Of a stretch of 64,000 nt of DNA, positions 1 to 58,957 are shown piece after piece. Location: assembly GCA_036172245.1 (NCBI GenBank), contig JAYWIR010000028.1:1984001-2048000 (forward strand), in the 5' to 3' direction. The DNA comes from Raillietiella orientalis. Its lineage: Eukaryota. The stretch's first letter is position 1. Each line of letters begins with the position of its first letter. Under the pieces are notes generated by a model. The model had not been told where the DNA came from, ran no database searches, and saw nothing but the letters and a program-made list of their open reading frames with translations. A program made the position numbers and the translations under genes.

Positions 1-1830
1 ATGTACCGTGAGAGGGGGAACTGCTGGTAGATCCACGTCCCCGAGGGATTACACTGAGGGATCGATCAGGGGTCTCTCCGCGGGAGGATATGGAAGAAGT
101 CAGGGACGAGCCCCGAGGGAGAAGAGGTGCCTGCTTCTGGGAAGGAATGGAATGCTCCGCTGTCTTGCCCGTGACCCTTCTGTCTCCTCCCCCCCGGAGA
201 AAAAACGGCTCGGGAAAGCAGGAAGTCAGCCGCCCATCGCCGCCTCCTGCTGCACCTACAGGATAAAAGAATGGGGATGAGGGCTGATCGGCGCAGCGTG
301 GGAGGCAAACTGCTAGGGGACTTCAACCCCATTCCACCACGGAGGACGCCTCGCACAGACTCACGCCCGAAAACTCTGCCTGGGGCTCTCAAAGGCGAGA
401 AGATTTCCCTGGAATGCTCCAAGAGGGAGGGGTTTGAAATTTCGGCCTTCTCAGTCGGTGCTGCCTCTATGGTTTCTCCGCGTTCCCTCACCGTCTTTCC
501 GGAGGTACCCTGGTGGTGAGTGACCTTCTCCCGAGGAACGAGGGTCGGGAACCACGTGGTTGCCGCGCTCCAGAGGCTGTACCAGGGCTGAAACGCGCGC
601 TCCAGCGACGCCCCGACTCCCCGATACCCCAAGGCACCTGCCCAGAGGAAGATCCTCACCCCCTCTTCCGGTTGTTCTTTCCTCCCCAAGTCTTGAAATC
701 CCCTGCCTCTAGCGGAAACCACGGCACCTTCCCGAGGTGAAAGAAGGGCATGGCTGCCATCCATGGGAGGTTTCCAGGATCCCCTCGAGAATCGTCGCAT
801 CCCTCTCGAGGGGAGCGGCGATTCCTACTCCTCGGCTCCAAGTCGGGAAGACGACACCGATTCGTTAGGGCGCCTCAGGGCAAGTAAGGATGGACTCCGC
901 CAGAAGTTCGGGGCGTCGCATCTGCTCCCTTCGCGTCCTCTCCAGAAGCGGCCCCCAAGGAAGTGGGGAAGCCACCCTCGTGGTTGTTGTTGTTGTCATC
1001 ACGGGGCCGACCACCCTGTTTGTTCGTCCATCGGCCCTCGTCTTCTCTCGTCGAGTCCCCAGCAGGGATACGGACCACGGAGGTTCATATCCGCTGAGGA
1101 TGTCCCTTCCGTCTCATGGATTTCATCTATGTAGTTTCGCTCCCACTCCCCACCCCCCAGGCTCTCCACGGTAGGGATGCGCCTCATCCCAGCCTCCTCT
1201 TCCTCCTCCTTCCTCATGTCGCGGTCGTGGAATCGCTTCTTGGAGAAGGTGGATCCGGGGCGAGACAGGGTGCCCTCTGCCTTCCGGCACGAGCACTCAC
1301 CTCACCCCCCCTTTTCTCCCGGGGATCCGCCGCGCGGTCTCCGAAGCGGCGGAAAGCCCAGATTCTCCGTCCTTTTCTCCCAGGGACGCTTCCAGGAGAC
1401 TTCCAGGCGATCCGCGCCGCTCGAAGCTCCCCGGGGAACGAGTGCGAGCACGTATCCCTTCCGTTCCCCCACCCCCTTCCTCGTTCCCGAGATCCTTGTT
1501 CCTTGTACTTCCTCGTTCCCGAGCGCGATCGAACTGACCCTCAGCTTCAGCAGTGGCTGTCCCGCACCAGTGCCTTCCAGATGAGCTTCGGTGAGGGTGG
1601 AGCTCCCTGGGAGCGCGGCCCGCGGGAGGCAGTCGGGTACGGTTCAGGGGCTGCCGCTTTGGAGCCGCCGATGCTCTCCTCGCGCGCACGCGCACGTGGA
1701 ATCGCTGCCATGGCGCCCAGAGAGAAGATCCTCTCCCGCTGGCATCTCCTCTCGGCAGATCGATTTCCCTCCCAACTGATCCCCGCCTTCTTATCTTGGA
1801 CCGCCGGGCCATTTATTTTAGGTGGATAAA
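1..1830 (+). mobile_element. Decayed LINE fragment (AP-endonuclease and post-RT relics)
   Basis: LLGDFN endonuclease motif at ~310-330, SD(H)-like VSDL at ~515, and ESLLGEGGSG (resembling the LINE ..EGGLG motif) at ~1230-1260. No intact frame. Confidence 0.4.
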
Positions 1831-4374
1831 TGAAATTCTCTCAGTATACGAGGGGCCGGTATGCGTTGGCCCCTTATCCACGGGGAAGGCCCTCGCTGGG
1901 GACTGGACTAAGAGAGGGAAGGACAATACGTAGGAAACGGGCTGCTTCGGTCCCGCAATACTCAGCACGATCCCCGAGGACCTGCGTCGGGCAGGAAAGG
2001 AAAACGGGGGGTGGGGTTCCCCACCCCCCCGTTTGCTCATTGGTGCCAGGAGCGTTTGCTTACGGTCGTCCAAAGGTGGCCCCATTACACCTTACATCCC
2101 GTATCCGACCGTTCCGTCACCCTTCGCATGCGGGCCATGGCGATCGCGAGGCTCTCCGAGATGGCGCCGGCCGCACCCTTCCTCCATTTGAGAGACCGCC
2201 GATGCTGCCGGCGAGGCGGTCAGTTGCCATCGATGAAGCGTTCGGTGAGCCCGGAAAGATACGATGGGGTCCTCCAGGAAGGCGAAGCGCCTCCACGATG
2301 CGCTCCCACCCGGATGCAGCCTCCTGAGCACTCTCGCAGCACATGCGGAATGGTCACCGCTGTCCCGCGCTCCTCGGGCACCCTCCCCGTGAGGTGCAGA
2401 GCCGTTTCTCGTTCAAGGCAGAGCCCGGCGCACCACCAGCGAGATAGCGGTGTGTTCGTAGCAGGAGGTCTCCAGCTTTCACGGAGAATTGGGCAGGGAA
2501 GCCAGAGGGAAGGAGTCGAGGTGCACCCTCGGATCCTTTGGTAGTCGAAGCAAGCAGCCATTTCTGTCGCTGGCACCTCTCGTGGCGGCCTCCCGCCACT
2601 AATTTTCGGGAGTGTGAGCCGTCCCGGACGCCCATCCGTGGTGAGAGCGCCCTCTTCCAGGAAGTGGAAGAGCAGTCCCGACGCTGCGGGAGCGGAAGAG
2701 GAGCAAAGAGGGACTCTGGCGTCATTGGAACACTGGTCTGTTGGCTCCACTCTTAGAGGGGCTCGCCATCGCGACCACCATTCCGACTATTCCTCCTTCC
2801 GCATCCTCCAATAGCTCCCTCCAGCGGGTAACCACCTCTCTGAAACCACCGCTGGCCGTTTCTCCCGCAGGCGTCTGCGGATTCAAATGCCGGTCGAGGG
2901 TCGCAACGGAAAAAAAAGCCCACTTACTTCTCTATTTCCCCTTCCATCCTACAGGACTCTGGCCGATCTCCGGTATACAGAACGCACCGCCATCAGCTGA
3001 GCATCAGCTGACCAGTGCAGGTGGAGGCTGGACGGACCGGAACTCACGGCATATGGTTCCCGGCAGCCTGCGACAGGCGGGCCAACGAGGAGAAGAAAGA
3101 AGAGGAGGAGAGGGAGGAGGAAGAGGGCCTGAGAGTCCTCGTCCCCCCGCAAGCGTCCTCAGCATCGCTCAGGTCCTAGCATCGCGCGCTCCAGTCCAGA
3201 GCGCTTCGCTGCACCTCGTGGAGGCAGTGACTGCGATCACCTCCCCGGGATGACGAGCAGCTGCGCGCCCCACTTCCTCACCCCTCCCTTCGGTCACCCC
3301 GGCCGCTCTCACGAGGGCGGGGAGACTCGAAGAGGTGAACGCTCCTCCCGGTCTGTCCTGACGGCAGCACCGTACGGTGGAGGTTTCCCCCATGGCGGCG
3401 CGAGCACGCGTAGCACGACCACCGCCGTTGCTCGGCAGGCGTCCCTTGGGGACCCGCCCCAAGGACAGATCGGGAAGGGAAATGACGTCGTTATCCCCGT
3501 GGCAGGTCCCGGTGCGCCGCCAGGGAGGCGGCGGCGCGCGCCGGTTGGAGCGAAATGAGAGGACGGAAGTGTCCTCCGGGAAGCACCGCGACCGCCCTCT
3601 TCTCTTCCCGCGGAGAATCCACGGGGCCTTTCGATTTGCTGATATCCACCAAAAAGGAGATACTGGGACGGTGAGGCACGGCAGCCTTTCCTATGCAGGA
3701 GGAAGAGGGATACGCTCCCTGGCGTCTCCACATAGCAGCAGCGCCACGTGGCCAACCGAAAGGAAGGGCAGCACGGACAAGCTCGCGGTCTCTCGGAGCT
3801 GGTAGGAGCCGAAGCATGGGGTGCCTCGAGGGTGCTGGCAGGACTCCGCAGTTACGAGAGAGGAGATATAGGAGATCCCGCACTCGCGTCTAGGTAGGCA
3901 AGGAGAGTGCGGAGAGACCCCTGGCGTCGAGCAAGCCCCTGCTCGAGGCCGACGTACTCTAATGGGTCGCGGGCAACGAGAGGGCTCCCACCTCTTTCCG
4001 CGAGGAGACAGGCTGAACAGCCGCCCGCAACGCCTTCGGCAAAAAAAGACAGAAGGTGAGATCCGGGAGATCAGAGGGGCTACCGGAGATGGGCGAAGAC
4101 CGGAGTGCAGTTCTTTTTGGCCTTCGAGCGCTGCTCGCGAGACCCGCCTACTCCTGACGCGTTAGAAAAGACCCTTTCGTCGGCCTCGGGCTTCTTCTCC
4201 TTTCCATAGGAAGGGAGAAGCCTTTTCCTCCTCTCTCACTAGGAGCGGTGATGTCACATTCGAGAGAACAGAGAGTGCGTGCTCCTTCCCGAAGCCATCA
4301 CTCGAGACCAAAGAAATCTCTGCGAAGAGTGCGAGAAGGCACGAGGGAAGGTCGGACTCGTTGGGCGATGGGCT

Positions 4375-9300: not shown

Positions 9301-10243
9301 GAGCATTGGGCCAATGCTCGATTTTTTTTTCTATGCGCGGGTTCCGGTAGTTTCACTACGTAGGTCACCAAATGATGGAAAATCTCAGGCCAATGGGAAA
9401 GGTCGTGCCATGAGTTGCACTGCCTAGAAGACGGGGTCACTTCCTCCCTTCCGGGGGGTACTTCAGGGGAGGACAGAGGAAAGGATTTGAAAAGAGGTTT
9501 CCTTGGGTGGACCCTCGTCTCCGTTTGAAGGATTTTTTCGAATGATGCGACAGTTCCATATGAACAGGCATGAAGACAGTGAAGACTGAAAATACTAGAA
9601 CTGTCGTATGGAACACATTCGTGGCTCCCCTCCTCCGACCCTTGCTTTTTGTTTGCCCCTGTCCCGGAGATGTAAAAAAGCGGGGGACCTTCTGTGAAAA
9701 GCCTTCTGGGGAACGCAGAGGTTCCGAGTCCGCCTGAAGGCCTTGTGCGCGCGCTGCGTCGGGACGCCGGACTCGGCTTCCTGACGCTGAAGTGGATGGA
9801 GCTTCAGCTCCAGTTTAGAAGATCAGCCCGAGTGATGAAGTGCTCGACCATCCATTGGCGCGTTCCTCGTGCATGGCCACCGAGAGTTGTCCTGATGCTG
9901 ATTCCAACTCCGGCAAATGGTCGTCTTGGTCCAGCAGAAGAGATGGATTTTCTGCCTTCCCGCTAACTGTAGTGTCTGGAAACAGGAAACGGTTCAGGCG
10001 TGGGTGGAAAGAACGGGCACGAGCCCGGAGTCATCGCGATGCCAGCGATTCTCGAACTACGCTCTCTGTCCGTTACAGGAAATCACGGACTGTCTAAGGA
10101 AGATCACCTAAGCACTCAACACTCCACTTGCAGCCGCTCTCAGCACAATCCAGCAAAGTGAAAATGGCGATGGGCTTGCACGATGGGAAGTATCCTGAGA
10201 GATCGCAGCTGGGATACTGGATGGCGCGTCAACTGGCTGACGC

Positions 10244-10700
10244 ATGTACCCCCGCTTCCCTCCCCAGAGGGTGCCCCTTGTATGGGCTGAACTCCTGAAC
10301 ATTCCCCTAGAAAAGGTAGAAATTCCCCCGGTGTTTGTGAACATCTCCACGCTTCCCTTGCGGTGGCAGGAACTGTGCACTGCAGTGCAGTCATTGCACT
10401 GGGTGATCCCATGCAACGCACGAGTCTTCCAGTGGACGAGGTGGGGTGCGGTCTCAGACTGTGCAAGGTGTAGGGAACAGGAAACCTTCCTGCATCTGCT
10501 CTTGGATTGTGTTGCCCTCCTGAGTGTCCGGGAGCGCTTTTCTGCAGCTCTCCCCCACCCAATGGGCAACCTCAAAGAGGTTTTGCGGTGTTTCTTCGCG
10601 CTCTACTTGATGTCGTCTGCAGCTTCCCTTGCAACCTTGTGCTGCCTTCGTAGGATCGTGGCAGGGAGAAGCAGCGCCGAAGGAGGCCGGGAGAATGATG
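10244..10700 (+). mobile_element. LINE ORF2 C-terminal zinc-finger (zf-RVT-like) fragment
   Basis: SLHWVIPCNARVFQW..SDCARCREQETFLHLLLDC fits the LH..LP...C..C...ET..HLL..C motif of L1/Tx1 ORF2. Confidence 0.75.
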
Positions 10701-11816
10701 AGGTCATCGCGATCGTCTGCTCCTTCATGAGTAAGGAGACAAGATCATCCTTGCCATCAAAATGTGGAAGTCGCCAACATCCTCCAGAGAATGCTGAGGA
10801 CGCCAGGGAGAAATCTATGATCCCTTCTTTTCCCTCTTCAACCGATTTTAAACTGAACTTTTGTGTTTCTTCCGTTTTTGTTACCCTTTTCTCTCCCAAT
10901 CCTCCTCTGCGGACCTCATCGGAGGAGCTGCTCACGAGAAGCAGTGCCTCCGAGGCATCTCCCTTCGTAGTGATGATGTGACGCCATCACGAAGGAAGAC
11001 ATTCTTCATTTGCATATGACTGCTTTTTTTGTTGCAAATATTCTTTAGAATAAACCTTCCGGCATGACCGTGTGAAAGTGATGACCATGACACCCTTATT
11101 CTATGCAATCTCTCCGCTTAGTCAATAAACAAAGCCGGTTTATGTGCGTTCTGGAAATTTCCAACTCTTTAAGCACATCGCTGTTTTTGGAGACTCAGGT
11201 TCCCCTCGTGCTGACTCCGAGTACTCAAACTGATGTCTGGGTTCACTGGAGCGAAAGAGCGAGCACTGGCTCCGAACTTTTCCATCCTTTCCTTGGCGCC
11301 GCCTAACGGGCAGCAGCACCACAGAATTCCCACTTCCGAGGACGAAGTTCGGGTCCTCTCCGGGACTTTTTGGCTGGCTGAAGGCCGGAATCTCCCATCG
11401 TACGCGCGCCCCACCGTCTTGTTGCAGGCGATTCAGGTGTGATGTCCCTCCTCACCTGGATCTGCAGACGCCATGTTCCGCGGGTGCGTGCGTGGCAGCG
11501 TCCCGTCCCACATCTTCCCACCCCGTCGCACTGGGGCTTTTGCTATTTAAAATGAACGTACAAAAGCGGTGCCTGGACACTCGGTCCTACCACGTTCATT
11601 AAAGACGGGAAAGCCGTGAAGCCGGCTCGCAGACCAGCGAGGGCCGCCTAGGCAGCAGAGGGGAGAAAGATAAACAAAAATAAAGTGCAGATAAAGAACC
11701 TCTGGATGAATCGGGAAGGAATCACTGTCCGCTCGAGAGCGTTCCATGCATCCTTTCCAGGAAGCCGACAGGTTTCCGCTGCATGTTCTCCAGATGAGAC
11801 TATCTCGCTGCGATCA

Positions 11817-12308
11817 TCAGGAAACGAGCTGGGAAGTAGATGGCGTTGCTGTTGTGGCTGCCTCTTTCGGCAGCGCTCCAGGCAGCCACGATCCCGCTAG
11901 GCAGCAAGGTGCTGCCAGGGACGCGGCTGGCGTGAGGGCATCACGCACGAAGAGGCGCTTCAGAACGTCTCTGAGGTCGCCGTCGGGGGACCACGGGGGA
12001 TGCGGCAAAGAAAGTTCCCACAGGGACCGGAGGACCACACGGTCCACGAGCAGGTGCGGAAGGGGCTCTCTTCCTCCACACCTGCTGCAGTTTGGGTGCA
12101 CCCTCCCGGGTCCTGCGATGTCGGCCGGCGTTGCACAGAAAATCCCAATGAGACAGCGGAATCGCCGACTGCTGCCACTCCAGAGGGAGGCTGCGAATGG
12201 TTTCTTAGCGTTGAGAGCCACTCGTAGTCTTCCCGGAGAATTCCCGGTAGCTTGTCCCGGCGCGAGAGTCCTTTCGGTGGGTTGTGAGCTGGCCCGTGGT
12301 GCAGCCAC
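11817..12308 (-). mobile_element. LINE ORF2 C-terminal zinc-finger fragment, same family as 10244-10700, inverted
   Basis: NCSRCGGREPLPHLLVD..LPHP..GDLRDVLKRLF..AASLAAPCCL parallels CARCREQETFLHLLLD..LPHP.GNLKEVLRCFF..AASLATLCCL. Confidence 0.7.
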
Positions 12309-12899
12309 CTCAAGTCTTCCCCCTGGAGTTCACCTCGCAGTAAACCTCCCACCTTGCCGGCAGGCAGCTCGCCCCATATCGGGAGCAGGCCCTATTCCCG
12401 ATCTTCTACTAAGCTGGAGCTACGATTGGCAGGAAGTTTAGCCGTGTCGCACGGATGGACTCGCAGTCTCCACAGGGCAGGCCACACCCTCGTCTGGAAA
12501 GGCTGGAAGGCCGCTGCATCGACCGCTCTTTTCTGCGCTTCCGGGGAGTGCCCGCTGGCCGCCTGACCTCCGCTCCCGAGAATTTTCTGCGCTGACTTTT
12601 CTGCAAATTACGCTGCGGCCAGCGGTCCTCTCCCCCATCGAGACCGCGCCTTCACGGGAGGTTCTGTAAGCGTCCAGAGCGGCCTTCGTCTGGCGGCTGG
12701 CTTTCTTGTTCCGCTTTGTTTAGGTCACTCTCCAGGCACTCCGAGGTCTCCTCGGCGCGCGCCTCAGCTGACCACTTGGCTGTTGCTCCTTGCGCAGCTT
12801 TCCTGAAATCCACGTGCAGCGCATCGCGCTTGCGGGCGAGATGCGCACGAAAGGGAATGCGCACGGGAGACGCAGGGCTCTCTGGAACGGTCACTTGAG

Positions 12900-14494: not shown

Positions 14495-14660
14495 TGTTTG
14501 GCGCCGTCGTCCTTGGCTGGCGAGCAGCAGGCATTCGACAGTGGTGGTGCTCCCTTGTTAGAGTTTGGGCGTTTGTCGAGCGGAACCGCCCGCAATTCGA
14601 ACCCGCGCTTCAAATAACCCGCAACCTTCAGCATGGGGCCGAGGCAGCTTTCGCCGCTAG
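14495..14660 (-). repeat. tRNA-derived SINE-like repeat, family B, copy 2
   Basis: A-box-like TAGCGGCGAAAG and B-box-like GGTTCGAATT on the minus strand, with a body similar to 9165-9300. Confidence 0.55.
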
Positions 14661-41099: not shown

Positions 41100-43400
41100 G
41101 TGATTTCGGCATCGGCAGGCCCTGAGGCCACTCCCAACACGCCGCTTTGATTGCATTCCACGGGAAGCTGTGATCGATGCTCACTCAAGCGTCGTCTACT
41201 CAACATGCTCGTGGATGAGGCTGAAGGAGGAGCACGTATTCTCGGAACCACAAGTTGCCGCCTGTTGAGTGCCATCTCCGAGCAGAGCGAGGAAGCGTTC
41301 TTTTGGCAAGAGGATGAGGAAAGGGGGGTAAGGGAGGGAGGGCGAAGCTTCTTTTTTTTTTCTTTCGAGGCTTTTCCTTGGCAATGGGACCAGAGGGATG
41401 TGAACGAAGTTACCTGCTTTGCACTGCTTGGCTCCAGCTCCGATCCCAGACAACGAGGTTCGCCCGTGTCTCCCATCCCTCATCGACCACCCGCAGAAGG
41501 GGAGAAGCGTCCTCCCGACGGTGCCCTGTCCCACTTCAGAGAGTCCATAGGGACATTAAAGACCTTCTTCCTCGTGGGAGCTGCGGATGCACTCCCTCAG
41601 TTTCCCCTTCCCGATCGGGAGTCCGCGGGACGACTTGCGACGGCGAACCCCTACCCGACCCGTGAAACCTCGTCCCGCCAACTCGTTGGCATTCCTGCTC
41701 TTTCCCGGAATTCCCGCGCGAGGTGCTGCAATCACGGAGGAAGCAGGGCTGGAGCCTTCTCTCTGCCCTGATTGGGAAAGTGAACGTCGCCGAAGACTTC
41801 CCTCTTTCCCGGAAGCCGTCGGTATGCAGGACGATCCCTCGCCGCTTTCCTGCTTGTGGTGGCGGCCCCGGCCTCCTGACGCTGGAGAGGATGAAGATTC
41901 AGCTGCAAAAGAGGGCCACAGCCGCGAAGCACTGGAACACCCCCTGGAAGCGTTCCCGCATGCCTCCTCGCCAGCCGTGCACCCCGTACGGAAGGACTTT
42001 CCTCCTACCTTTTGTGCCCCGCCTGGAAGGTGAGAAGATCCAGTCTCCTCCTCGGATACGCATGGCCACCTTGGCGGAGGAGAACGCCTAGATGGCCTGT
42101 TTCCCCGCCAACTTTAGCGCCTGAAAAGAGAAAACAGTTGGCACGTGGGCGAAGATCAACAAGCCGAGAGCCGAGACGCGGAAATGCCTGCGACTCGGCG
42201 TCCACGCCCGCTGCTCGCTGCGGAAGATCCTGGATCCCGGCTGGCACCCCAGGGGACGTTTCACGGCTCCTCTTTTTGCGGGATGCCATGCAGCCAGCAG
42301 CAGCCCTTGCAGCACTTAGCTGCATCTGCGAGATAGTGGCGGCCTGGAGCGAAGCCGATGGAGAAAGAAACGAGAGGAACACCGTCCACTCGTAGTTCGC
42401 TTCTTGAGGATAGCTGCCAGATGGTCCTACCTGGGACCTACTCGGACGGATCTAGCCGGCATCCTGGAAAGGATGCAGACTCCCTCCAGCCAACCGTGAT
42501 CCCCTACCGGTCTTCCAGAGCGTTCTTATTTATTTCTATGTATTCTTCATTTTATTTTTCTTTCTATTTTCTCCCATCATTCTCTGCCGCCGAGTCCCAC
42601 CGGTCTGCAACCTGGCAGGTCCTTTGCAGAATTGACTGCGGTGGGGCTTCGTACTCCACCACAAAAACTTATTAAGTTTATTGTTTCCAATAAACGTCCC
42701 GGTCTGACCAAGTGGCACTTTCTTGCCTAACCAGCAGACGGAGCTGCTGCTTGCAGGGGGAACAACTCCATTCGGTTGCCCCGGAGGGCCTCTTCGCAAC
42801 GTGGCGGACAGACACTCCTCCAGCCGCTGGGCTGCCGTTGCTATGGTAGCGTCACGGCGGGAGCCCAACTGCTAGGTGGGAGGTTCCCTGTCTCACAGGA
42901 AGGTGGAGGGGGAGGGGAATACCGGATACGACACGGAACACGGACGCCGCGACGAGGATCTGCCGGACTCCCACGCGTGACACATTAGACGCGAGAGCTC
43001 CGAAGGTCCCTGCAGAGATGATTCCATGGATACTGCTCTGGTGGAGGCACGCTTCCCCTTGGATTAAGTGGCAGTTCCCACTACCCTCCAAGGGTGCTCG
43101 ATGATTCCCGCCAGGTGGCAGCACGGGACGACACGTTTCTTGCACTGGGGTTTACCGCACAACTGACGCCCGGAGCCACTGTCACCCGGTCACGCTGGAG
43201 CGTACAGGAGTGTTTCCGTTGTGCTCCCGTGGGTGACCTTGTTGATCGCTCGTGTTTCGTTCAGCGGAATCGGTCGGGGCTTTGAACTGACGTCAGACTG
43301 CAGGCACGCAGTTCCGTGGACTGCGGAGTATGTGGGAGTTTGATTGTTCACGTAACTGTGGATCAGTCGGATACAATACGGGAGAGGGTGAAGGTCCCTT
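41100..43400 (+). mobile_element. Decayed LINE 3' half (RT thumb to zf-RVT)
   Basis: GARILG (KILG-like, ~41235), a post-RT segment shared with 44470-44870(-), and LHWGLPHN...ECFRC (~43140-43230) resembling the 10390-10480 zinc-finger region. Confidence 0.5.
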
Positions 43401-44439
43401 CAGGAATGACCACTCTTCCTCGGCCATCCTTTGGCAGGGAGGTTCTGCAGGACTCGAGGAAGTTTCTGACTCTGGCCGCCATAACTCTCTTGTCTCGGTG
43501 CCGTCTGCCCCGAGGGAAAGCGATGACAGCTGTCTTCCTGCTTGGCGGGAGTTCTCCTGCGCCGCTGCGGGAGAGACCAAGCTCCTGGGCGGCCTGGACG
43601 ACGGGCAGGCTCCTCCTCGTCCCTAGGCGAAGGGACCGCTTTGGTGGTCTCTGGCGACGAACTCATGGCCTCTTCCTCATGTTCGAACACTTCCATTTCC
43701 CCCCTTTAACTGGAAAAGCAGGTCTACGCCTCGCTGCCCGGGGGAGCTGCGTTCCCGAACAGTGCCAGGCGCGGGTCCGTGGAATCGATCCCGCTGAGGC
43801 TGCTTTTCTCCTGCAGAGCCCTCCGCGAACACTGGAGGGGGAATGTGGCTCCGGCGCCCAGGTACACATCGACCGCGTCCTGCTGCGGAGATCCTTCGCG
43901 CGCGGCAGGCTCCCGTCAGGCGACGGTGATGGCGACGATGGATGGTTGCTGTCACACTCCGCCACGTCTGGAGAAGAAAGCAAAGCGGAGGGAGACCACC
44001 CATACACCAGCTGCCTACGCGGGGACGGCTGCTAGATGACTTACCTACAAGAGGAAGCCAAGGCGGATATCGGCAGCATTCAGCGCCGGTCCACGAGGAA
44101 GGAACCCCGAAACCGGTGACTCGTGTCCTCATAGTTCTTCCTTTATTCATTTAGTGAATTTCCTCTCCCTCTCGTTTCGGACTTTGCCCGGCTGCTGAGA
44201 AGGAACGGGAAAAGCGAAAGTAACTGCCGTATCATCATCTTTTTTTTTTATTCTCGTTCATCATCCCCTCCCATTTGTTGTGAACTCCTGGGGTGACTGA
44301 CCTCCGCGTCGATGCGCTCTCCCTTTAGACTCCCCTTCGTTATCCTTTGGGAACTTGGTGGTTCCCAACACGTTCGTTCCTTTTTGAATAAACGCCCCGG
44401 TGTGCTCGGGTTTTATATCTCATGGATGCTGCGTCTCGC

Positions 44440-44880
44440 CCGAGAGCGGGAGCTCAACAACTCCCAGGTGGCAGTCCGTCGATTGGGAAGAGGCAAGCGA
44501 GGGAAGGACTCAGGAGCTCCCGCGCTGAAGAAGGTCTTTGATGTCTCGACGGCCTTCTTGGCCTCTCTGAGGTGGGAAGAGGAACCATCGGGAGGACGCT
44601 TCTCCCCTTCTGCAGGTGGTCGATGAGGGATGGGAGACACGGGCGAACCTCGTTGTCTGGGATCGGAGCAGGAGTAAAGTGGTGCAGAGCATCCCTCTGG
44701 TCCCGTTGCCAGCACGATGGATCGCCATCGGGAAGCGAGACATGACCCTGAGCGACCAAGGGCTGCAGCCCGAAGCTGCGGTGTAAAGCAGGAGGCATCA
44801 CTAGACCGCGACATATGGAGTGTACTGAAGAGCCCCAGAGGCTAAACGTCCTTCCAGAGGATCTTAGCGTGCTAACCGTT
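44440..44880 (-). mobile_element. LINE post-RT fragment, inverted paralog of ~41400-41650
   Basis: 44584-44669 is the reverse complement of 41437-41522 at 84/86 nt. Weaker similarity continues on both sides. Confidence 0.7.
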
Positions 44881-44919
44881 CTGGAGTGTGAGGGGAGGGT
44901 CACCCAGTTTTTTCCTGGG

Positions 44920-47900
44920 CATTTATTATTAAAATAATAATAAAAGACATGTCAATAACAATAGAATGGTACAACACCTGGTTCTACCACATGCGTGGAA
45001 CTTGTCAAGACCGGTACGTGGACCGACCACGTCAGCTTCTGCGGCGACAGAAAAGGGAAAACCGAAAAAAAGAAGCGAACAAAGGCGTTTTCTGGGGATG
45101 GAGGGAAGGCGGGGAAGGGATCACATTTCTCTGGGAAACATCCGCTGCATCCTGTAAGGGATGCTGACAAGTTCCGTCCTTTGTTTGCCCAGGTAGGGTC
45201 ATCTCGAGGGAGCCTTCAAGAAGATTGCCTCCCAGCGAATGGCGTCCCTGCCATCCTGGTCCCTTCTTTCCGTGTTCCAGGATGCCACGACTCCGCGGAC
45301 ACAGCAGAGAACTGAGAGGAACGCGGCTGGCGGCAGATGCCGCGCATGCACGAAGAGGTGTCGAAAAATGTCCCTAGGACCGTCCACTGGGAATTTTAGG
45401 ATCGTCGAGAGACAATCCCAAAAGGGTCAGAGGATGGTACAGGCTGGAAAAAAATGCGGGAAGGTCTCCTCTTCACCCTCACCTGTCTCATTTGGCGTCC
45501 ACGCTCCTCCGTGTCCAGTGGTGGAGGCGCTCTTTGCATGGGATTCCGCAGTGCGATCCCAGCAACGCCCACTCCTGCGACTCGAGGAGAAAGGCGCCAC
45601 TGTTCCAGCACTCTGTGGATCACTTTATCTCCTCCAGAGGGATCGCGAGCAGCTCTCCCCAGCGTGAGAGTCCTTTCGGCGGGACACTCGGTGTCGTGGC
45701 GTCCGTGACCTCCCGAGTTGTCCACGCGCCCAGAAGTTTTTTCCTGCCTCGCATGAAACAGGACATCTACCTTGGCGGAAGGTAGGAGAGTACCTTGAGT
45801 CCTTTAGGGAGGGCAGTGATGGGGCAGGCGGGTGGACGAAGCCCAGAGCAGCTTGCGTGGGCTGCAAACAAACTCCCGCAGCGGCCGTCGAGCGTGTCTT
45901 CATCGTCGGAGGCAGGCGTACTCTGCCTCGTTCGACCGCGGATCTTCCCCCATGAGCACACTGACTCCTGGAGCCAGGCAATGCAGCTTGCGGGGAGGCA
46001 GGAGATCCAGGTGTTCTTCACCAAAGCAACCATCTGTCTCAGTGAGGTGGGGAGGAAAGACTGCAGAAATGTGGCACTGGTGCTCTGTTTCCTCGGTCCA
46101 CAATAAAATCCGGTGGAGGCGAGATTTATTCAGCCTGAGGTTCTTCCATGGTAGTCCATCTAGGGAGGATCACCTTGGACACACCCGAAGGGCAGGGAGG
46201 TAGCCGAACTGTTCCAGTCTTGCACTGTCCAAACGATCAGACTTGGAACGATTCCCGACTGATCTTTCAAGCTGTTTTCTGGGATATCTGGAGTGCAGAT
46301 CAAGGTGGTCAGCCACCCCATATGGTCCACGTGTCCGGAAGCGAAATCGTCGATGCGTGGTATGTCGTCAAACCCAAATTTTGTGGACCTTGAAAGTCTT
46401 CGGTACACCTGAAGAAGATCCGACGCACCAGCTGCGCACTGTCAAGCCGCGTGCTTGGCATGCGGGGAACAGCGACCACGTGAGACGCCACGAGAAGAGG
46501 CCAGTACGACAGGAGCTCTATCCACTGGGCAAAACTCTCTATGAGGATCGCCGCAAGATAGCTCCATCTGGGAAGTAAGAAAAACGAACTCACCAGCATC
46601 CTCCACAGGTTGAACAGGAAATCGAGGAACACACTGTGATCCCTTCCCGAGCACCCTTTTCATTCCATCCAAGCACCCTCAAAAAAAAAAGTTTTTGTAT
46701 TTATTTATTTGTATTATTTTGTTTTCTCTCGTTCCCTGTGTCTCTAAGACGGACCTTCTTCCGGTATTCTCTCTTGAACCTTTGAGTCCAAATGGACGTG
46801 GTAGTGTCCAAAATTGAATGTTCGTGATTTTAATAATGAACGACCCGACGCAACCAGGTGAAGAACTTGAGCAGTGTGAAAACCGGGATCTGTTGTGAGT
46901 GTGTTTGGGGAGAACGTCTCCCTGAAATGCTCCAGGTACGGGACGGTCGAATCGTCCCCTCACCTGAGGGGACGGAGTGTGATGCTCTCCGTTGCACTTG
47001 GAGACAACCCGTGGTGACAACGCTCCTGTATCCGGAGGACATCCTCCAAGCATCTCTGCATCGTTTCTCCGTGCTGGACTGATGCTTTGTCGTCTGCCGC
47101 TGTGATCGCGATTTCCGCGTTGTGACGTCACAGAACGAGTTGGTGTTCCGCGAGCACACGAAACATGCGGCCAGGCAGCCCAAGTCAATATCTAAAAAGA
47201 AAAAAAAAAAAAAATACATAACAGCATTTATAAAGAAAGAATGTGGTGGAAAATCGACAGCATTCATTAGATTTTTGATCAACCCCACGTTCAAAAGGGG
47301 ATGAAGTATTATAGGTGAAAGGTAAAGTGGATTTGATGATTATGATAAGCGGGTCGATTAAAAGGACAATCAAATGGGCGAGTAAAAAGAATAGAAACGT
47401 TTCATTCCTTTGAAAAATGAAGTAAAATAATAAAGAAACTGTTTGATGATCAGAAGTCCTCGGGTTTATCTCATTATCCGCATGAAGTCTCGAGGGAGAT
47501 AGTTCGAATCTCGATCACGCTGTAGATGATTCTCAGCGGCCAAATCTCAGACCCTTTTCTCTTCCCTCCCCTTCTCTTTTCTTTTGCCTATTCATTATGA
47601 CCTCCTTCCTTTTGCATCCATCTCTGTGTACAGCTGAACTGCGGGGGAAGGGGGATGGAGATTCTCCAGCGAATTTTTGTTACTGAGTAGAAACTCAGTC
47701 TGTTGTGGCAACCCTTTTTGTTTTTTTTGAGTTTACCAAACGCCTTGGCGTGACCTTCCCATCCCCGATTGCCGGGCCATTTACTTAAAATAAAGAAATG
47801 AAATTTTTGAAACCCACATCTGGCAGCCCGGAACCAAAGGAACAAACCTCGCTGGGGACAACGAGGAAGAAGAGGAAAGGCCAATAAATGCACAAATAAG

Positions 47901-48730
47901 GAGGTTAGGAGGATCGGCATCGCGGTAATGAGCACGATTCCTGAGATCCTGCGTCGGGCAGAGATGGGGAAGAGGGAGGAAGGGGGGGGGGGTCGCGCAA
48001 CTGGGAGAAAATGCACGTGCCAGTGTCAAGGCAGCAACCTGAAACACGCTCCCCAGCCCCATGCAGTGGTGAAAGTGCAGAGTGGTCCACCGTGGAAGAA
48101 TTCGCCGTGGAGAAATGCAGACGACCGTCCTACGAAGTGATGGCAGTGTGCCAGACGCAGTTCGTTACCATGGCAAGGAGGGCAAACACCGCCTGCGCCC
48201 TACTCGACGGCGGCGAAAGCTGGGGCTGCCACGGCACGAACCCACGACCGGAAAAGTGAAAAAGGAGTCATATTGAAACCCGAAGACGTAGACGTAGGCT
48301 CCATCCTCATTACGCAGAGAAAAGTACACCCCATTGAAATGGAACATCCCACACTTCGCTGACCCTATTGAAAACGGGGCAGTGAAGTGTGGGATTTTCA
48401 ACCCCACACTTCACTGCAACGAAGGGCAGTGTCAAAGCAACCGTGCCCTTTGCAGAACTGCCGTTTGCACCGATTGCGATCAACTGTTCGAGAAGGTCGT
48501 CGAGAAACGGAATGGCTTGAAATGGCAGGAAAGCCCGAGGGCATCAACGAGGAAGTCGCGACAAACCGGAACCCTTGCGGCTTGAGCTTCAACCCACCGA
48601 GAAATTGCACCTGGGGCCATTTTTTCCCAGTACAGTACGCTTTGATACATTTCAATGTAAGGAATACAGATTAAGAGATGAAAGGGCGGGCTTTCCACCA
48701 CCTCAACAGATCTTTTAAACTTCCTTCGCG
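44920..48730 (-). mobile_element. Decayed Tx1/L1-like non-LTR retrotransposon (ORF1, endonuclease, RT)
   Basis: Frameshifted motifs occur in the expected order: ORF1-like CRDFLVDALG / GHGCFDTALRCSEVW / YVYVFGF (~48600-48270), a broken CCHC knuckle (~48050-48000), endonuclease-like segments (~47200-46830), RT segment RWSYLAAILIESFAQWIELLSY...LVRR (~46580-46420) and a YADD-like relic (~46350). An AT-rich tail lies near 44920-44945. The 3' boundary is uncertain. Confidence 0.6.
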
Positions 48731-48736
48731 TAGATT

Positions 48737-48839
48737 TATCCGAACGCCTCACGATTCTGCGCGTCATTCTTGCTCAGGGGTCATGCTAACCTTCTCCGCA
48801 TCGTTCCAATTTTAGTATACGCACAGCTGAAGCGTGTAC
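48737..48839 (-). ncRNA. Variant or pseudogenic U6 snRNA fused to the U2 fragment
   Basis: The minus strand reads GTACACGCTTCAGCTGTGCGTATACTAAAATTGGAACGATGCGGAGAAGGTTAGCATGACCCCTGAGCAAGAATGACGCGCAGAATCGTGAGGCGTTCGGATA, collinear with canonical U6 over ~100 nt. The AGC triad is kept, ACAGAGA is changed to GCGGAGA and the 3' oligo-T is missing. Confidence 0.9.
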
Positions 48840-48871
48840 ACTTTGATCTTAGCCAAAAGGCGAGAAGCGAT
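48837..48871 (-). ncRNA. U2 snRNA 5' fragment (nt ~1-35), truncated inside the branch-point recognition sequence
   Basis: The minus strand reads ATCGCTTCTCGCCTTTTGGCTAAGATCAAAGTGTA. This matches the metazoan U2 5' end ATCGCTTCTCGGCCTTTTGGCTAAGATCAA(A)GTGTAGTA apart from one missing G. The rest of U2 is absent. Confidence 0.9.
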
Positions 48872-49339
48872 AATAAAAGTCAGAAAAGGTTTGAAAACTT
48901 GCTAGGCCAATCTTTGGTGTAGGGACGCCGGTGGAAATGCCGAAGTCCCCAGCTTTGTGGACATGGGTCAGGGGTAGCCAGCCGATCGTGCAAAGCACAC
49001 GCTGGCACCTTCCAGATTTCTGTCGAGTGTGCATAGCAACGTGACCCTCGGGCAGCCTCGTCCACGTACAGCAAAGGAAGAATCCGAAGGCATCTGACCT
49101 TCGTGTGTCCGAGAGCTGATACCTCTGCAGGGCAGCAGGCTGGTCAAAACTGCAGGAGCAATCCTGAAGAAAAGGGAGCAAAAATATACAGGTGCACATG
49201 CGGTCAGGAGGCAGAAAATGGAAGTGAGGGTACTCAAGAACTGAGGTCGGAAGAAACGGTCACAAAAAGGCAGGAGTGCAGATAGATCAGGCAACGGGGA
49301 TGATTTTTTTTTTTTTTTTTTCCGTAAATGTAAGATGAT

Positions 49340-50350
49340 GGAGGCAGTTATGGGCTTCGAAGGTTTAGTACTAAGCCAGGGTTGATTTTTAAAACATTGC
49401 AGAAATGGATGTAGTTAATGATGGATTTTGGGAAATGATGCTTTAATCGGTAAAGACAGAGTGTGCGAGGTGAGGATATGTTGAAGAATTCGACAAAAAT
49501 GCACTCGAAATGCTTTTTGAGGACACTTACGAGTGGCACAAAATAAGGTGTGCTCTCTGTATTGGCAAATGTTTGTGGTGTTTTGGCTGCTCTAAGGTAG
49601 CAAAACGATTGGATACTTAATTGGTACCGTGGATGAGAGATTGTATTGGGAGAAGCTGTCTCATTCGGTAGGTTTGAAATGAATGCCGTAGGGAAGAATC
49701 TGTGGTGGGTTTAGGGGACGAGAAGACCCTTCACTAGAACTAGGTGTCTTTCGAAGATTCCCGGCCGTTTAGGGGGAAAGAATAGAGGTGAGAACTGCTG
49801 GAATGGGGATGACGGTCGATGGTAATAGGGAAATGATGATGAATAGAGGGACCAGTTTTTGTCATGCTAGAAGGATGATGGTTGATAGCCATGCAGAGCT
49901 GTTCATAACGGGTAAAAATCAATAGTGGAATGGTAGTATTCCTAGTTTTATAATCATAATATGGAATGGATGGAAAGGAAAGGGAATCAACTAAAGAAGA
50001 TGCAATTGAATGGGAGGAGTGATGATGATGCTGTTTGAATAAGCAAATATTTTATTCCGGAATGGGAAGAGAAGAGGGAGGAAGGAGGGATAATGATAGA
50101 ACATGCGGAAAATAGGTTGATCTCTTGTCTGAGTCAGGTAATCAATCAGTTATTTGTAGATAATGTAATTAGTGCTCTAAGGGAGATCAGTGTTAAGGAG
50201 GGTAGTGTTGATGAAACTGCGTGATATGGAGATCAAATAGACGACTCATGAAAGGGATATGGACCCAACGGCTTTATTTGGCTTATCTTCCATTTGCGAG
50301 TTAGTAATGGTATTGAACACATCCTTATTGAAGAAACATTCAAGGAACAT
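49340..50350 (-). mobile_element. Possible Penelope-like element relic (RT end and GIY-YIG tail)
   Basis: Fragmentary peptides NHHPSSMTK, QYREH, LQHILTSH and INYIHFCNVLKINPGLVL occur in the order expected for a PLE C-terminus. Heavily decayed. Confidence 0.35.
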
Positions 50351-50363
50351 TACTGTTATGTGG

Positions 50364-50405
50364 CTGTCGGTGTACATCTGTCGGTGTATATCTGGGGGTG
50401 TATAC
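50364..50405 (+). repeat. Short tandem repeat, 3 x 14 nt
   Basis: ctgtcggtgtacat / ctgtcggtgtatat / ctgggggtgtatac. Confidence 0.75.
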
Positions 50406-51729
50406 TCAAAATTGAAATCGAGCTGATGCTTTTATTTTCAAAATAAATGTTTCACGTGAAGCTTGTCAACGGAACTTTTATGTAGTGGCAAAGAAAGGTC
50501 ATTTTCGGATATTTAATACATCATGATGTGCATCCAAGCTGCAGATCGGGTAGCGGGATCTACAAGGCAATTGGGAAGGTTGCTATTGGCGGAAATTCTA
50601 CGGTATTCAATCTTCGCGTTTTTACTCACAAAAAATATATATATTTTTATTTTCTGCAAAGTTATTGAATGTTACTGTGTGAACGCAATTTTTCGATAAG
50701 CGATTACGAATTAACAGAATATTCGCATCTGCCACCCGATGTGTAATAGTCATTATAATGACATTCTGAAAGTTTTTAGAGAAACCTGCTTTGAATAATA
50801 TAATACCCTAAACGTTTAGATTATTAGTTGATAAGTAATAGTCTATAATATAATTGGGATACTCGAATAAAGAGATAAAATGGGAATCTTTATAAAAAAA
50901 TAGAAAATTTTAGTTTATGGGCTTAAATGTACGTATTTATGGAAGGGGATGCGTCAAATGGATTTTATACTTGGAAATATTTTTGTACCAATATTACTGC
51001 AGTCTTGGGGTATTGCATAGAAATCCAGGAATTTTTTAATCAGAACAGTTTGCTGGCAACACAGGAGATGAATTCTGGAGAGATTTATAAATGAATTAAG
51101 CTGCCGATATGACGAATTTAGGATTTAATTATGCGTTGGCTGTTGCTAACCATTTTTACGTACGTTTTTTAATGTTAGTCTATGTAATGAGATACATACG
51201 AATTTCGAAAAGTACAGAAGGCTGGTATGTAATTGCAAAGGGGAATTCGAATTGGCAATCGCTGGAAATTTTGCCAATTACAGTGCCGGCAGCTGCGGCT
51301 AACCGTAAGAGTTCAATGAATTTGGATATCTCTTGATTGAATGGAAATTGTAGGTTGAATACGTATGTGTTATGGAGGTCTCAGTTATTATTTATAAAGT
51401 AGAACTGGGTGCTCTAGTGTGAATAATGGATAGCAATGAGTTGAGGAAGGGGACCTCTATGATTTAGAGGTGCTGAGAATTATTGGGGGAATCGGCTCCG
51501 TAATTGAGAATCTGCGAGGAACTTCGCTTTTTCGTGTCTGTGTGTTCTCACTTTCATTATTCAGGAGTGATTCGTTTCCGCAATAGAGAGCAGTCAAGAG
51601 CTCTGATCAAGATGCAGCATGAAAGGGGATAGCGATGAGCCGTGGTATGCTAAATTCGGAGATATGAATGTAATTTTGTATTGAAATGGCATTCAACTGC
51701 AAATCCGTCTGAGGAGGACAGGTTGGATG

Positions 51730-53370
51730 ATTCTTGCGCTCGCCTCCTCCCGAAGATGTAGCCGATCGCTCATACCGTGCTCTGCATTTCATTCTCGCAT
51801 CATCTCCAACGCTCAATAAAGAAGTAAAACTTACTCGAGGAGTGATGAACCATATTTTCGGGATTTTGATCCTTGGGGATTTCATCATTAGGGATTACGA
51901 CATGTTTCTTCCGACCATATGATCGGCGCCTCCCGTTTTGCTACTGCGGTTATTCTTTCGCGTGGAGGCCCTGAGCTCCCTACGGGAGAACGGCGGCAGC
52001 AGCCTTCCTGCCAGATGGAGGATTTGCCTGCACGCTTGCAGGGCGGGCGACGAGCACTTCAGTGGATGCTCGTCCAGTCTGTTAGCGAACACTCAGAATC
52101 CATGGGTAGAAGTGCAGAAAATGCCCCCGGAGGAATTGGTAGTCCCTCGCTCTGTTTCGACAGACTCCTCTAAATTGGCAGTACTTGGTCCTTCTCGTTC
52201 TGAACCGGGCATCCACTGGCACGGATGGCGGACTCATGTGTTGGGGAGGGGCTGGAAATGCGTCCCTGAATTGAGCGTGGATCATTTTGCTTCGTCAGAG
52301 ACGGAGGAGATTAATCAGTTTTGCTGTAAGCTTCCGGATGGACGACGGACCGGAAAGGCTTGATGAGACGTTTCTTCCCCGAGGATGGCTTCACGATGGC
52401 AGCAGCGCTGGACCTACTGACCTACATCCCCAGCATGGTGGCGATGCGCCTCGGAATGGCGAAGAACTACAGGAATTTGGAAGTCACGTCAACGGTCGCC
52501 TCTCTGCTAAGGTGGAAACTCGCAGACCTCCCATCTTCCCTAAGAGGCGAAATCTCGGACACTAAGCGCAGACGGCGACACGAGGCAATCGCCGATCCCT
52601 CGATTCCCCCCTCCCCCTTTCCCCGCGACGTTATGGCACTTTACTTGTTTATTTTTTTTGTTTAGGGTGGCACATGGTCCACAGTCCTCTCGCGTCTCGA
52701 GAGATCTATGGAGACTCCCTAGGAACTCCTAAGGCAAAAAAGGAGGTAGCAGAGGGGGAAGACGAGAAAGGATGTGCACGACCTGCAGCAAACTCTGTAC
52801 TGTTGTGCTGTATCTGCGGCAGCGCAGTAGCAGCAGGCTGCAGAAGGATCTATGCCAGCAGCAACGAAAGTCCTCTTTCGTGGGAAGAGCTGCCAGGAAG
52901 TGGCCGTATCCGGACCCGGAAGCATTCCTCATCGTGCAAGCCCTACGTGCAGGGAAATCTGAAGGCGCAGTGACTCTTCTTCCCTTTCCTGTCGCACGCT
53001 TCGTTCACTTAGCTCTATTATTTATTGTCCCCTTCTCCTAAATCCCTAATCAGCAGAACGGTTCTAGGGTATAGCACCCCTAGCTGAAGTGCGTCCAGAA
53101 CGAAACCCGTCCCCCTGTTTCGTCTGCCTGCGTATCCCGTGAAAACAAACTCTCTGAAGCGATCGGGTGACACACCCCCACCCCTGCGTAAGGTATTAAT
53201 TCGTCCTCAGCAGCGACGGGCCACTCTGCATGCCGTGCGCGCAATACTCTTTTCAACCAAGAGTATCCATTTCGAGGAAATCCTCGAACGAACCGCCAGG
53301 GCAGCAACTCAGCCTTCCAGAACCTTCTACGAAGGAAAACTTACGCAGTCGAAGCCGTTTGCTCCCTGAA
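51730..53370 (+). mobile_element. Possible DIRS-type tyrosine-recombinase retrotransposon relic
   Basis: STDSS..W.GW (RNase H TDAS-like), SVDHFASSETEEINQFC (DIRS methyltransferase-region VDLFAS..N..F-like) and LHAVRA..FEEILE..SRTFY (YR HxxR...Y) appear in DIRS1 order. Confidence 0.5.
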
Positions 53371-56580: not shown

Positions 56581-58957
56581 TCAAATGCGACGGGAGCGCT
56601 TAGAGGAAGGCTGATAATCCCAGATGCTCTTCTCAGACTGATGATCTGGAGAATAATGGGTAGGTTTTTCAGGACCGTCACTAAACCAATCAGACATCTT
56701 GGTTTTACTATCATCGTAAGGTTGCAGATCACTTCCACCAATAAAGTGCAATGGGTGGGAACGTAAAGCTGGCATAACCTTCCAAAACCATAAGCTTAAG
56801 GGACATAAAACTTGATATTCACCTTATGGAACTTTTTGAAATTCCTACTAGAAATGCCATCTGAGAGGGAGAGGACAGGAATTTTCTTATTGAGTAGGTC
56901 CACCATGTCAACCAGCATATAATTCTCCAAGTTCTTTGCTTCATGAATCACTTCTTCCTGCTTTCCATAAGATTTGTATTCTCCATTTCCTGAAGAATAC
57001 TAACCAAACCTCTAGGTCTTTCAGCAATAGGACTTACTTTTTCCTGTGTGGAAAAAAGACTCTGCTCCTGTGGACATTTATCAGCAGTCAAACTGATATC
57101 CTGGTCCCTCTAGGGCACATACTGTCGATTTTTTTCTATCATTTATGAGTGAAGCTTACCTTCTTTTCAACAGTATGCTTGTCAACATGTTCTGGAGTCT
57201 GATGGGCAATTCTTGTTTTCGTTTCATTTTGAAACACCTGATGATTATACTGGCATGTATCTGAATCATTAAATGTTGGTGCAGTACAATCAGCCTGCTG
57301 TGCTTTTTTTCGTTTTTTCCTTAAAGATATTGTGTCCTCAAAGTCATAATTATTGTTTGCTTCTGAAATGAATTCTGTTAACTGAGAAGTCTTGTCAAGA
57401 GAATGTTTTATTGGTCGACTTGTTAAGAGAGATGAGTGGGAACTAAAGTTTTTATCATTATCAAAATGCAGTGTACTTGCTGATTCAAAATCAAGAATGT
57501 CAGGAGACTCAACCTCTTTAGAATTCATTTTCTCAACAGGTGTTTTAATGGAAGATGTATCTTTTACAAAGGATGTATCAAGTTTTTCTAACACATCAGT
57601 GACTTTGAAACCTTCATCAACATGGGGAGCATTATGCACAAGTTTCTCAGGGAGAACTGATTTACTATCTTTCTCTTGCCAATTTGAAGGAGAGAAGATA
57701 TCCATACTGAAATTGGTTGCAAGAGTATCTGTATCACCTGATGAAAATTTTGCACAATCTGCTGATGTTGAAGCAAACATCAAAGGACTAGATGGACTTG
57801 AAACTTTCTGAGTAATAGTGCCTATAATGGTACACTGACTTGGATTAGCCGTGAACGATGGATTGCAGTAGCATTTTCTGTTGTTATAAAGAATTGCCAA
57901 TCCAATTTCAGATTCAGTAATAAGTCTGTGACCCCTACTCTCCAGCAAATGTATTATCCAAGGAGCAGGATCAGAAGCATGTTCACCTACAATCACAACA
58001 TTTTCGTCCACACTACTAGGATGCTGTTCAAGAATCCCAGACCATCCATCTACAATGCCACCTGCAGCTTCTACAGCTGCTCTCAGTTTTTTCTCAAGTT
58101 TTTGGGAACAAAACATAAAGTGCACCTTACTAAAAAGGTGGCTCCTTGATTGAATGGGAGAATAGATAAAATGCTTCTTGGACAACATTTCTTCAGCAAC
58201 AACAGGCTGATAATTGAGTGGATCAGGAGCTACTGACTGTGTTTGAAGAGCTTCCCATAACTTTTCCAGGTATTCTATGGTTACCAACAACATTCCTGCT
58301 GCCAGACCACAAACAAGCTAAATGCTTTGTATTTCAGAACATTGGGAAGTTGGCAAATCACCTTCACTGTGAGAATAAGGCGATTCATCACTACCAAATG
58401 ACAGGAAGGAGACCAATCTTCATGGAGAGATCCTTGCAGAGCAGATACCAGAGACTGGAGTTGTTTTTTTTCCCTGCAGTTCAAAGAAGATTGAGTGACT
58501 TGTAGTGGTCTGAAACTCAACCTAAAAACATATAATTTCCTCACATTTTGTATACATACTTCCAAATACTATTTAGTCTACCAAAACGCAGCATATCATC
58601 ATCATGTAATATTACTTGACCACTGATGTTCTCATTTTTTTTAATACCATCATTCACAAAGGTTCCATATTTTGAATGTTCATCCCATAGCATTACGGTG
58701 CACGAAGACAACTGTAATTGAAGCAAATGACACAAATTCATGTACGTTCTTACTTGTGGAACCTCTGAAAATGACAGTTTCATGTGGGCATGAACACGAC
58801 TCACAGAAATGTCTCCCAAAATTTTGATATCTGCGGACTTCCGTCCTATGGTGACTTCTTTATGATAAGGAAGGAGAAAGCTGTCTCCTTAAACCACAAA
58901 TTATAGAAGCTTTCACTGACCCAACTTACCACTGAGAATATTTCTCAATGACCACAT
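56581..58957 (-). CDS. NBN: Nibrin / NBS1 (MRN complex subunit; FHA, BRCT, Mre11-binding and C-terminal motifs), 8 coding exons, ~692 aa
   Basis: Exons 58957-58930, 58887-58754, 58711-58560, 58521-58362, 58317-57160, 57109-57038, 56999-56823 and 56778-56581 (2079 nt, GT-AG, in phase). Motifs: FHA (MWSL..IGRK..DISVSRVHA..DEHSKYGTFVN..RFG), BRCT (WSPSCHLVVM..TVKLVCGL; ITESEIGLAIL..YCNP), Mre11-binding RNFKKFHK and C-terminal FIGGSDL. The boundaries of exons 6-7 are the least certain. Confidence 0.92.

Follow-up and report, generated by a model that had tools for sequence, protein, structure and literature searches.

Chimeric retropseudogenes of small nuclear RNAs (snRNAs) are by-products of reverse transcription by long interspersed nuclear elements (LINEs), and they have been documented in mammals and in one fungus. 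U6/LINE chimeric retropseudogenes were reportedly described by Buzdin in 2002. In this study, a locus joining U2 and U6 snRNA sequences was analyzed in a window of 64,000 nucleotides (nt) of Raillietiella orientalis DNA (GenBank assembly GCA_036172245.1, contig JAYWIR010000028.1, positions 1,984,001 to 2,048,000 of the forward strand); all positions below are counted from the first letter of this window. The locus was identified, with moderate confidence, as an old, decayed U2(1-35)::U6(1-105) chimeric retropseudogene that would have arisen by a template jump.

The closest described systems are U6-L1 fusions and the mouse B2-U6-L1 element with 15/16-bp target-site duplications, which are explained by single and double template switches in the available part of Gogvadze et al. 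2007 (PMC2104539); the same part describes a tripartite WEIRD/Mg-SINE/MGL element of Magnaporthe (SINE, short interspersed nuclear element). Triple chimeras are discussed as double switches or as two events in the accessible text of Doucet et al. 2015 (PMC4476161). RtcB-mediated ligation of U6 and L1 RNA is described in the excerpt available from Moldovan et al. 2019 (PMC6789731). On the U2 side, Utopia and Keno (the latter of the Tx1 clade) share an insertion site, with a 3' flank from U2 nt 39 and variable 5' junctions, according to the available part of Kojima & Jurka 2015 (PMC4640811). The accessible portion of Kojima 2015 (PMC4494074) describes U1 and U2 pieces that were added to the 5' ends of SINEU elements by template switch.

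The snRNA pieces of the present locus, and the sequence that adjoins them, are as follows:

48871..48837, minus strand: U2 snRNA nt 1-35 (RF00004 local alignment, 26.4 bits, relaxed thresholds)
48839..48733, minus strand: full-length U6 snRNA pseudogene (RF00026, 71.6 bits, E 3.9e-16, model positions 1-105)
48732..47985, minus strand: 748-nt stretch adjoining the U6 3' end, with no repeat, Pfam, Rfam or LINE-family similarity

The U6 copy exceeded the RF00026 gathering score of 44 bits over the full model and was the sole above-threshold snRNA found with Rfam in the 64 kb. The U2 alignment lay below the RF00004 gathering score of 46 bits. It had high posterior for the 5' 35 nt only, with nothing beyond, and compared with the Rfam consensus it carried a deletion and an insertion of 1 nt each. 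The 19-nt U2 core GCCTTTTGGCTAAGATCAA occurred a single time in the window, and shuffles expect 0.01 matches even with 3 mismatches allowed. The U2 fragment and the U6 head proposed by a sequence-only reading of this DNA were therefore both real, the former by RF00004 over nt 1-35 and the latter by the full RF00026 model.

The U2 piece started exactly at U2 nt 1 and ended with GUGUA, within the branch-point recognition sequence; the U6 piece started with GUACACG. Across the join, the minus strand reads ...CTGACTTTTATT followed immediately by ATCGCTTCTCGCCTTTTGGCTAAGATCAAAGTGTACACGCTTCAGCTGTGCG..., and GTA (48839-48837) is assignable to either RNA, giving a 3-nt overlap. The two pieces are joined head to tail, without filler, and no A-tail follows the U2 piece. 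The pieces, their exact 5' ends and the overlap were read directly from the sequence. Apart from nt 1-35, U2 sequence was not found, whether at E<=1 across the 64 kb or at E<=5 across 40000-54000, and no further U2, U6 or tRNA was found in the window. The U2 3' remainder, already reported missing by the sequence-only reading, was absent because the window held no other U2 sequence.

The pseudogene state of both pieces was equally plain. In the U6 copy, the ACAGAGA box had become GCGGAGA, while the 5' stem-loop and the AGC were kept. Eight upper-case, strongly conserved consensus positions in the 60-nt U6 core were substituted, as counted by eye on the RF00026 alignment; A>G accounts for five of them, G>A for two and C>A for one. 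The U6 piece ended in ...GCGTTCGGATAAATC, with GATAAATC followed by TACGCG and without a T-run, as had been noticed before from the missing oligo-T terminator. The intact ACAGAGA box, invariant core and oligo-T of a functional U6 were all lacking. The Sm site and 3' stem-loops of a full-length U2 were lacking as well, and nt 1-35 alone aligned. Judged from the sequence, neither the U2 nor the U6 piece can be functional, because U2 stops at nt 35 and U6 is mutated at near-invariant positions and has no T-run.

Run-off reverse transcription was favored because both boundaries coincided with RNA 5' ends, and a DNA rearrangement is not expected to hit both. A template jump was favored because the pieces abut without filler and share the GTA microhomology; microhomology is typical of template jumps. 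A reverse transcriptase (RT), presumably from a retrotransposon that lacks long terminal repeats (a non-LTR retrotransposon), would have run along U6 snRNA as far as its extreme 5' end. From there, the growing complementary DNA (cDNA) would have jumped onto U2 snRNA, where its 3' end, the complement of GUA, could have paired with G33-U34-A35, part of the single-stranded region that recognizes the branch point. U2 would then have been copied back to nt 1, and the product would have integrated as U2(1-35)::U6(1-105). It is attractive to suppose that U2 was chosen as the acceptor owing to its spliceosomal pairing with U6. The template jump and this reason for the acceptor are steps that we infer, as is the enzyme, which was deduced from relics only because no RT domain was detectable in the window.

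The setting is rich in LINE fragments, as observed directly, and a LINE-like family with at least six copies in the window supports the past presence of local retrotransposing machinery. Template switching, which the sequence-only reading had offered as the source of a tripartite LINE>U6>U2 product, was the best explanation of the U2::U6 junction. The LINE partner in that product stayed unproven because the closest LINE-like pieces on the U6 strand lie downstream of U6 by 748 nt and by 2.67 kb. The product would be tripartite if a LINE or other RNA had been the template copied first, 3' of U6.

Several observations weigh against a template-jump retropseudogene. No target-site duplication was found in the search that the sequence-only reading had recommended, and no poly(A) or A-tail was present. 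No RT domain was detectable anywhere in the window scans. The 748 nt 3' of U6 tie to no LINE, and the classic U6-LINE architecture was not shown. The locus is also a single one, at which one event and two adjacent events are indistinguishable. The best candidate for a target-site duplication, a downstream match at 44949 to 11 nt of the sequence 5' of U2 with 1 mismatch, was unconvincing because it lies inside the 3' untranslated region (UTR) of a LINE-like repeat copy (46064..44851, listed below) and is no better than shuffled sequence, its score being reached by 24 of 100 shuffles. The 8-mer CTTTTATT, present 5' of U2 and at 44946, was also tried as a target-site duplication and rejected; its second copy is homologous to the repeat 3' UTR in copy A of the same family.

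The 748-nt stretch had no second copy in the 64-kb window by self-comparison. No Rfam match was found in it at E<=5, and a small-RNA origin was not supported. It was also compared with the LINE-like repeats of the window, termed family 1. Against family-1 translations, the best tblastn E was 0.022 among hundreds of noise alignments. The best-preserved family-1 open reading frame (ORF), P0001, gave no match to the stretch at E<=10. Alignment z-scores against family 1 were -0.4 to -0.8, with a positive control of 39.8.

The same stretch contains a triple hairpin at 48342-48417, in which CAGTGAAGTGTGGG occurs three times with its orientation alternating. Next to it is an inverted pair of 15 nt (48332-46 / 48643-57) whose arms are 296 nt apart. 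A weak Rfam match to mir-885 (E 0.4) reflects the triple hairpin. The hairpin and the inverted pair after U6 may be a small foldback insertion or one resembling a miniature inverted-repeat transposable element (MITE).

Tx1-like ORF1, endonuclease and RT relics had been proposed within about 150 nt of U6. At E<=1, LINE-type Pfam families matched none of the 41 minus-strand stop-to-stop ORFs of at least 40 aa in 44001-48758; weak matches to unrelated Pfam families occurred in eight of these ORFs (best E 0.025), all under curated cut-offs. LINE-type Pfam matches were likewise absent from all six frames of 43000-48740 with stops read through as X, one of which gave GST_N_2 at E 0.08. The motif [FYLMIV]xDD did not occur in the three minus frames of 48733-44850, where 0.47 occurrences are expected by chance. 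The absence of a YxDD-like motif is uninformative alone, yet consistent with no RT. The scan for RT and endonuclease families covered 20 ORFs of at least 180 aa and 373 further ORFs of at least 70 aa in the window (all 374 of that length outside the regions already scanned, minus one already covered), together with positions 6000-10999 in all three plus frames and 11500-16499 in all three minus frames. Neither RT nor endonuclease families were found among these ORFs and frames. A profile match to LINE ORF1 or ORF2 downstream of U6, the point on which the sequence-only reading had staked its claim, was not obtained. Its observation of snRNA pieces stood, and its LINE relics within about 150 nt did not.

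LINE-like repeats were nevertheless present in the window at the nucleotide level. Family 1 comprised at least six copies with a shared 3' end and differing 5' ends. Its nucleotide profile was built from five copies, and nhmmer found six at E<=6.8e-11; the first five match the profile by construction, whereas copy F and some weaker matches do not. The family-1 copies, and the tail of a second family, are as follows:

46064..44851, minus strand: family-1 copy on the U6 strand (nhmmer E 7e-305, by construction)
9880..11098, plus strand: family-1 copy A (nhmmer)
12355..11446, minus strand: family-1 copy B (nhmmer)
42053..42788, plus strand: family-1 copy C (nhmmer, internal gap)
46420..46943, plus strand: family-1 copy D, 3' 520 nt (nhmmer E 4.7e-100)
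43523..44404, plus strand: family-1 copy F (nhmmer)
47984..47754, minus strand: family-2 230-nt tail, about 60% identical to 2016..1786 on the minus strand (blastn E about 2e-10)

The family-1 copies start at profile positions 1, 7, 29, 275, 294 and 715. Their common 3' end is ...TTTTAATAATAAAYGnCCCGGnnnGACCnnGTG, without poly(A), and the copies are conserved at the amino-acid level. Many copies with one 3' end and variable 5' truncation were thus found, and judged by this pattern they are 5'-truncated copies of a non-LTR retrotransposon.

P0001 (10241-10978) gave a sub-threshold match to zf-RVT (E 0.071, 14.2 bits against a cutoff of 27.5). The motif NCSRCGGREPLPHLLVD was found in copy B, at a place homologous to the zf-RVT-like stretch. 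Among the 30 nearest named Atlas clusters to the family-1 ORF, 24 were zf-RVT, which is a lead only. A phmmer search of 1.84 billion representative proteins with P0001 gave a single match, P0002, which is not a LINE protein, and a phmmer search of PDB gave nothing below E 1.4. P0002 is an 849-aa tandem-repeat translation with weakly zf-RVT-like units, of which 10 stretches sum to E 1.5e-23. It may represent satellite DNA that originated from the 3' part of a LINE, or its summed score may be due to chance. Family 1 was not assignable to a LINE clade because phmmer returned only this tandem-repeat protein.

The family-1 copy at 46064-44851 contains, near 45690-45510, a putative decayed relic of an ORF2 C-terminal (zf-RVT-like) region. 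At its 3' end the copy reads AATAATAAAT (44930-44921), and a hairpin to about 44895 comes next. The 3' limit of 44920 that had been set for the candidate element from the sequence alone coincides with this AATAAA-type 3' end of a LINE-like repeat copy. The copy begins 2.67 kb downstream of U6 and is 5'-truncated at about 46065; copies A and C share about 100 nt further 5' that are missing from it. Copy D, on the opposite strand, lies between U6 and this copy and breaks continuity.

The LINE-like tail nearest to U6 on the same strand is the family-2 tail, 748 nt downstream. It ends in ...AATTTCATTT..AAGTAAATGGCCCGGC, which resembles the family-1 3' end, and in nhmmer the family-1 3' motif matched weakly there (E 0.13 and 0.92). 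No homology between the two family-2 copies was found upstream of 47984/2016, where the local score of 14 equaled shuffled scores. With four minus-strand LINE-like tails in 64 kb, a same-strand tail is expected by chance within 750 nt in roughly 5% of cases and within 2.7 kb in roughly 20%, both figures being rough estimates. The proximity of a LINE-like tail to U6 is therefore suggestive at most.

The two longest pairs of family-1 copies are arranged tail to tail: the 3' ends of A (plus) and B (minus) are about 350 nt apart, and those of F (plus) and 46064-44851 (minus) about 450 nt. The spacers of the two pairs are unrelated to each other, and the arrangement could reflect chance or an insertion preference. 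The youngest repeat pair of the region is inverted (41379-41617 / 44480-44711, 77-81% identical over 212-248 nt); it is outside family 1, and one of its arms lies between tail-to-tail copies. Other old repeat pairs have 65-72% identity (7831-8083/32747-32982, 9180-9317/14508-14645, and 41018-41088/4363-4434). These three pairs are unrelated to families 1 and 2, and the GC-rich part of the window is largely repeat-derived.

The locus was compared with the published U6/LINE chimeras. As in those chimeras, a full-length U6 is an internal or 5' module, the joins are filler-free, and the copy is a nonfunctional pseudogene in a LINE-rich setting. As in mouse B2-U6-L1, a fragment of another small RNA lies 5' of U6. 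The present locus differs in that the 5' module is U2 nt 1-35. The published chimeras are defined by a 3' LINE module, a target-site duplication and an A-tail, none of which was demonstrable here. The local LINE-like families end in AATAAA and a hairpin, unlike the poly(A) of the published cases. Judged by its divergent nibrin, the host is probably neither a mammal nor Magnaporthe. RNA ligation by RtcB, as the excerpt of PMC6789731 presents it, could explain the U6 3' junction, at which there is no T-run and unrelated sequence follows. It does not explain the U2::U6 junction, which lies at the capped U6 5' end, and RtcB action there is unlikely from what is known of the U6 cap.

Two independent events, or a join at the DNA level, could also have placed a 3'-truncated U2 retropseudogene and a U6 retropseudogene side by side, by nested insertion or end-joining. 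Truncated snRNA retropseudogenes of this kind are common according to the accessible portion of PMC4494074, two successive insertions can give triple chimeras according to the available text of PMC4476161, and no target-site duplication is left to prove a single event. An independent U6 insertion, however, must hit the exact 3' end of a 35-nt fragment, and the two pieces meet precisely, U6 nt 1 coming right after U2 nt 35 (or 32) without filler or A-tail and with a 3-nt overlap. This explanation was considered unlikely, although it fared best among the alternatives to a template jump.

A multi-copy family, SINE-like or LINE-associated, was judged less likely still. Such a family would have the U2/U6 pieces as its head and the 230-nt LINE-like end at 47984-47754 as its tail, and the same-strand order of snRNA head, 748-nt body and LINE-type tail is SINE-like. 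SINEs headed by snRNA exist: in the available part of PMC4494074, SINEU has a U2-derived 5' end, as here, and template switch is the proposed source of its snRNA pieces. The SINEU heads described in that part are U1 or U2, not U6. The many copies of SINEU have common bodies there, whereas a single copy is seen here in the 64-kb window. The tail recurs only once in the window (2016-1786), without the body and without the head, and the 748-nt body itself is found a single time in the 64 kb, in contrast to the six or more copies of family 1. Promoters of U6 and U2 genes are external, as the same portion of PMC4494074 restates, and such a head would bring none of its own.

A Keno- or Utopia-like element could have inserted into a real U2 gene near nt 38/39, gained U6 at its 5' joining and decayed beyond recognition. 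The sequence-only reading had noted that these elements insert close to where this U2 stops; the literature agrees, and the position is near but not identical (nt 35 against nt 39). The U2 5' fragment stops close to the branch-point recognition sequence, and its end is 3 nt away from the site that Utopia and Keno share, the 3' flank of which begins at nt 39. Variable 5' junctions are described for these elements in the available part of PMC4640811, and LINE-like material lies downstream here on the same strand as U2 and U6. In Keno and Utopia, however, U2 from nt 39 onward follows the element, and here neither the downstream 48.7 kb nor the rest of the window yielded a U2 3' part. These elements encode an RT with an apurinic/apyrimidinic endonuclease (APE; Keno) or a restriction-like endonuclease (Utopia); no RT, APE or restriction-like endonuclease or ORF1 profile was detectable in 43000-48740, and no YxDD in 48733-44850. 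Unlike in Keno and Utopia, no element body adjoins the junction directly: family 1 is represented on this strand by a copy that is 5'-truncated at about 46065, beyond which A and C extend further 5', and the opposite-strand copy at 46420-46943 lies between that copy and U6. The other family-1 copies in the window are not beside U2 sequence. U6 is found at the junction here, and it is not described for Keno or Utopia in the available part of PMC4640811. The proposal of a Keno-like element with a U6-derived 5' UTR therefore failed for want of a LINE ORF1/ORF2 profile and of U2 from nt 36 or 39 onward in the window. A U2-targeting LINE with a captured U6 is the more exciting idea, with no support in the sequence, and targeted insertion was regarded as highly improbable.

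Equally improbable is that U2(1-35)::U6 is a recurrent retroelement head, whether of a LINE with a U6 5' end and the U2 branch-point region as its target or of an snRNA-headed SINE that uses the 47984-47754 tail. In a milder variant, the junction would be the result of an RT jump between the strands of a paired U2/U6 duplex. Metagenome scans for the junction gave 0 matches and then 2 (L001 and L002), both without snRNA at E<=0.1 and attributed to chance as judged on L001.

A compact nibrin/NBS1-like gene lies in the AT-rich part of the window, at 58888..56584 on the minus strand, with the following domains:

58544-58888, minus strand: FHA
57142-58317, minus strand: BRCT_II
56584-56823, minus strand: Nbs1_C

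Its best database relatives, fish nibrins and one EukProt entry, are no more than 33-34% identical. A gene of the DUF726 family (alpha/beta-hydrolase-like) lies at 35209-36429 on the plus strand in a stretch of 62% GC. It extends over three frames (35209-35781, 35660-36052 and 35962-36429), which implies short introns or frameshifts. GC content shifted sharply along the window: it was 50-63% in the first 48 kb, which are rich in repeats, and 33-41% over most of the final 14 kb, where one 2-kb bin had 51%. GC skew was strongly positive (0.16-0.24) at 48-52 kb.

Phrase searches of the literature for a genomic U2-U6 chimeric pseudogene gave synthetic U6-U2 constructs only. The U2-U6 combination may thus be unreported, and the kind of object is already known. 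A single decayed locus is a curiosity and not a new mechanism. The two RNAs joined in it are base-paired partners in the active spliceosome, and a eukaryote that is poorly sampled and unrelated to the earlier hosts would, with its U2::U6 join, widen the range of template-jump chimeras.

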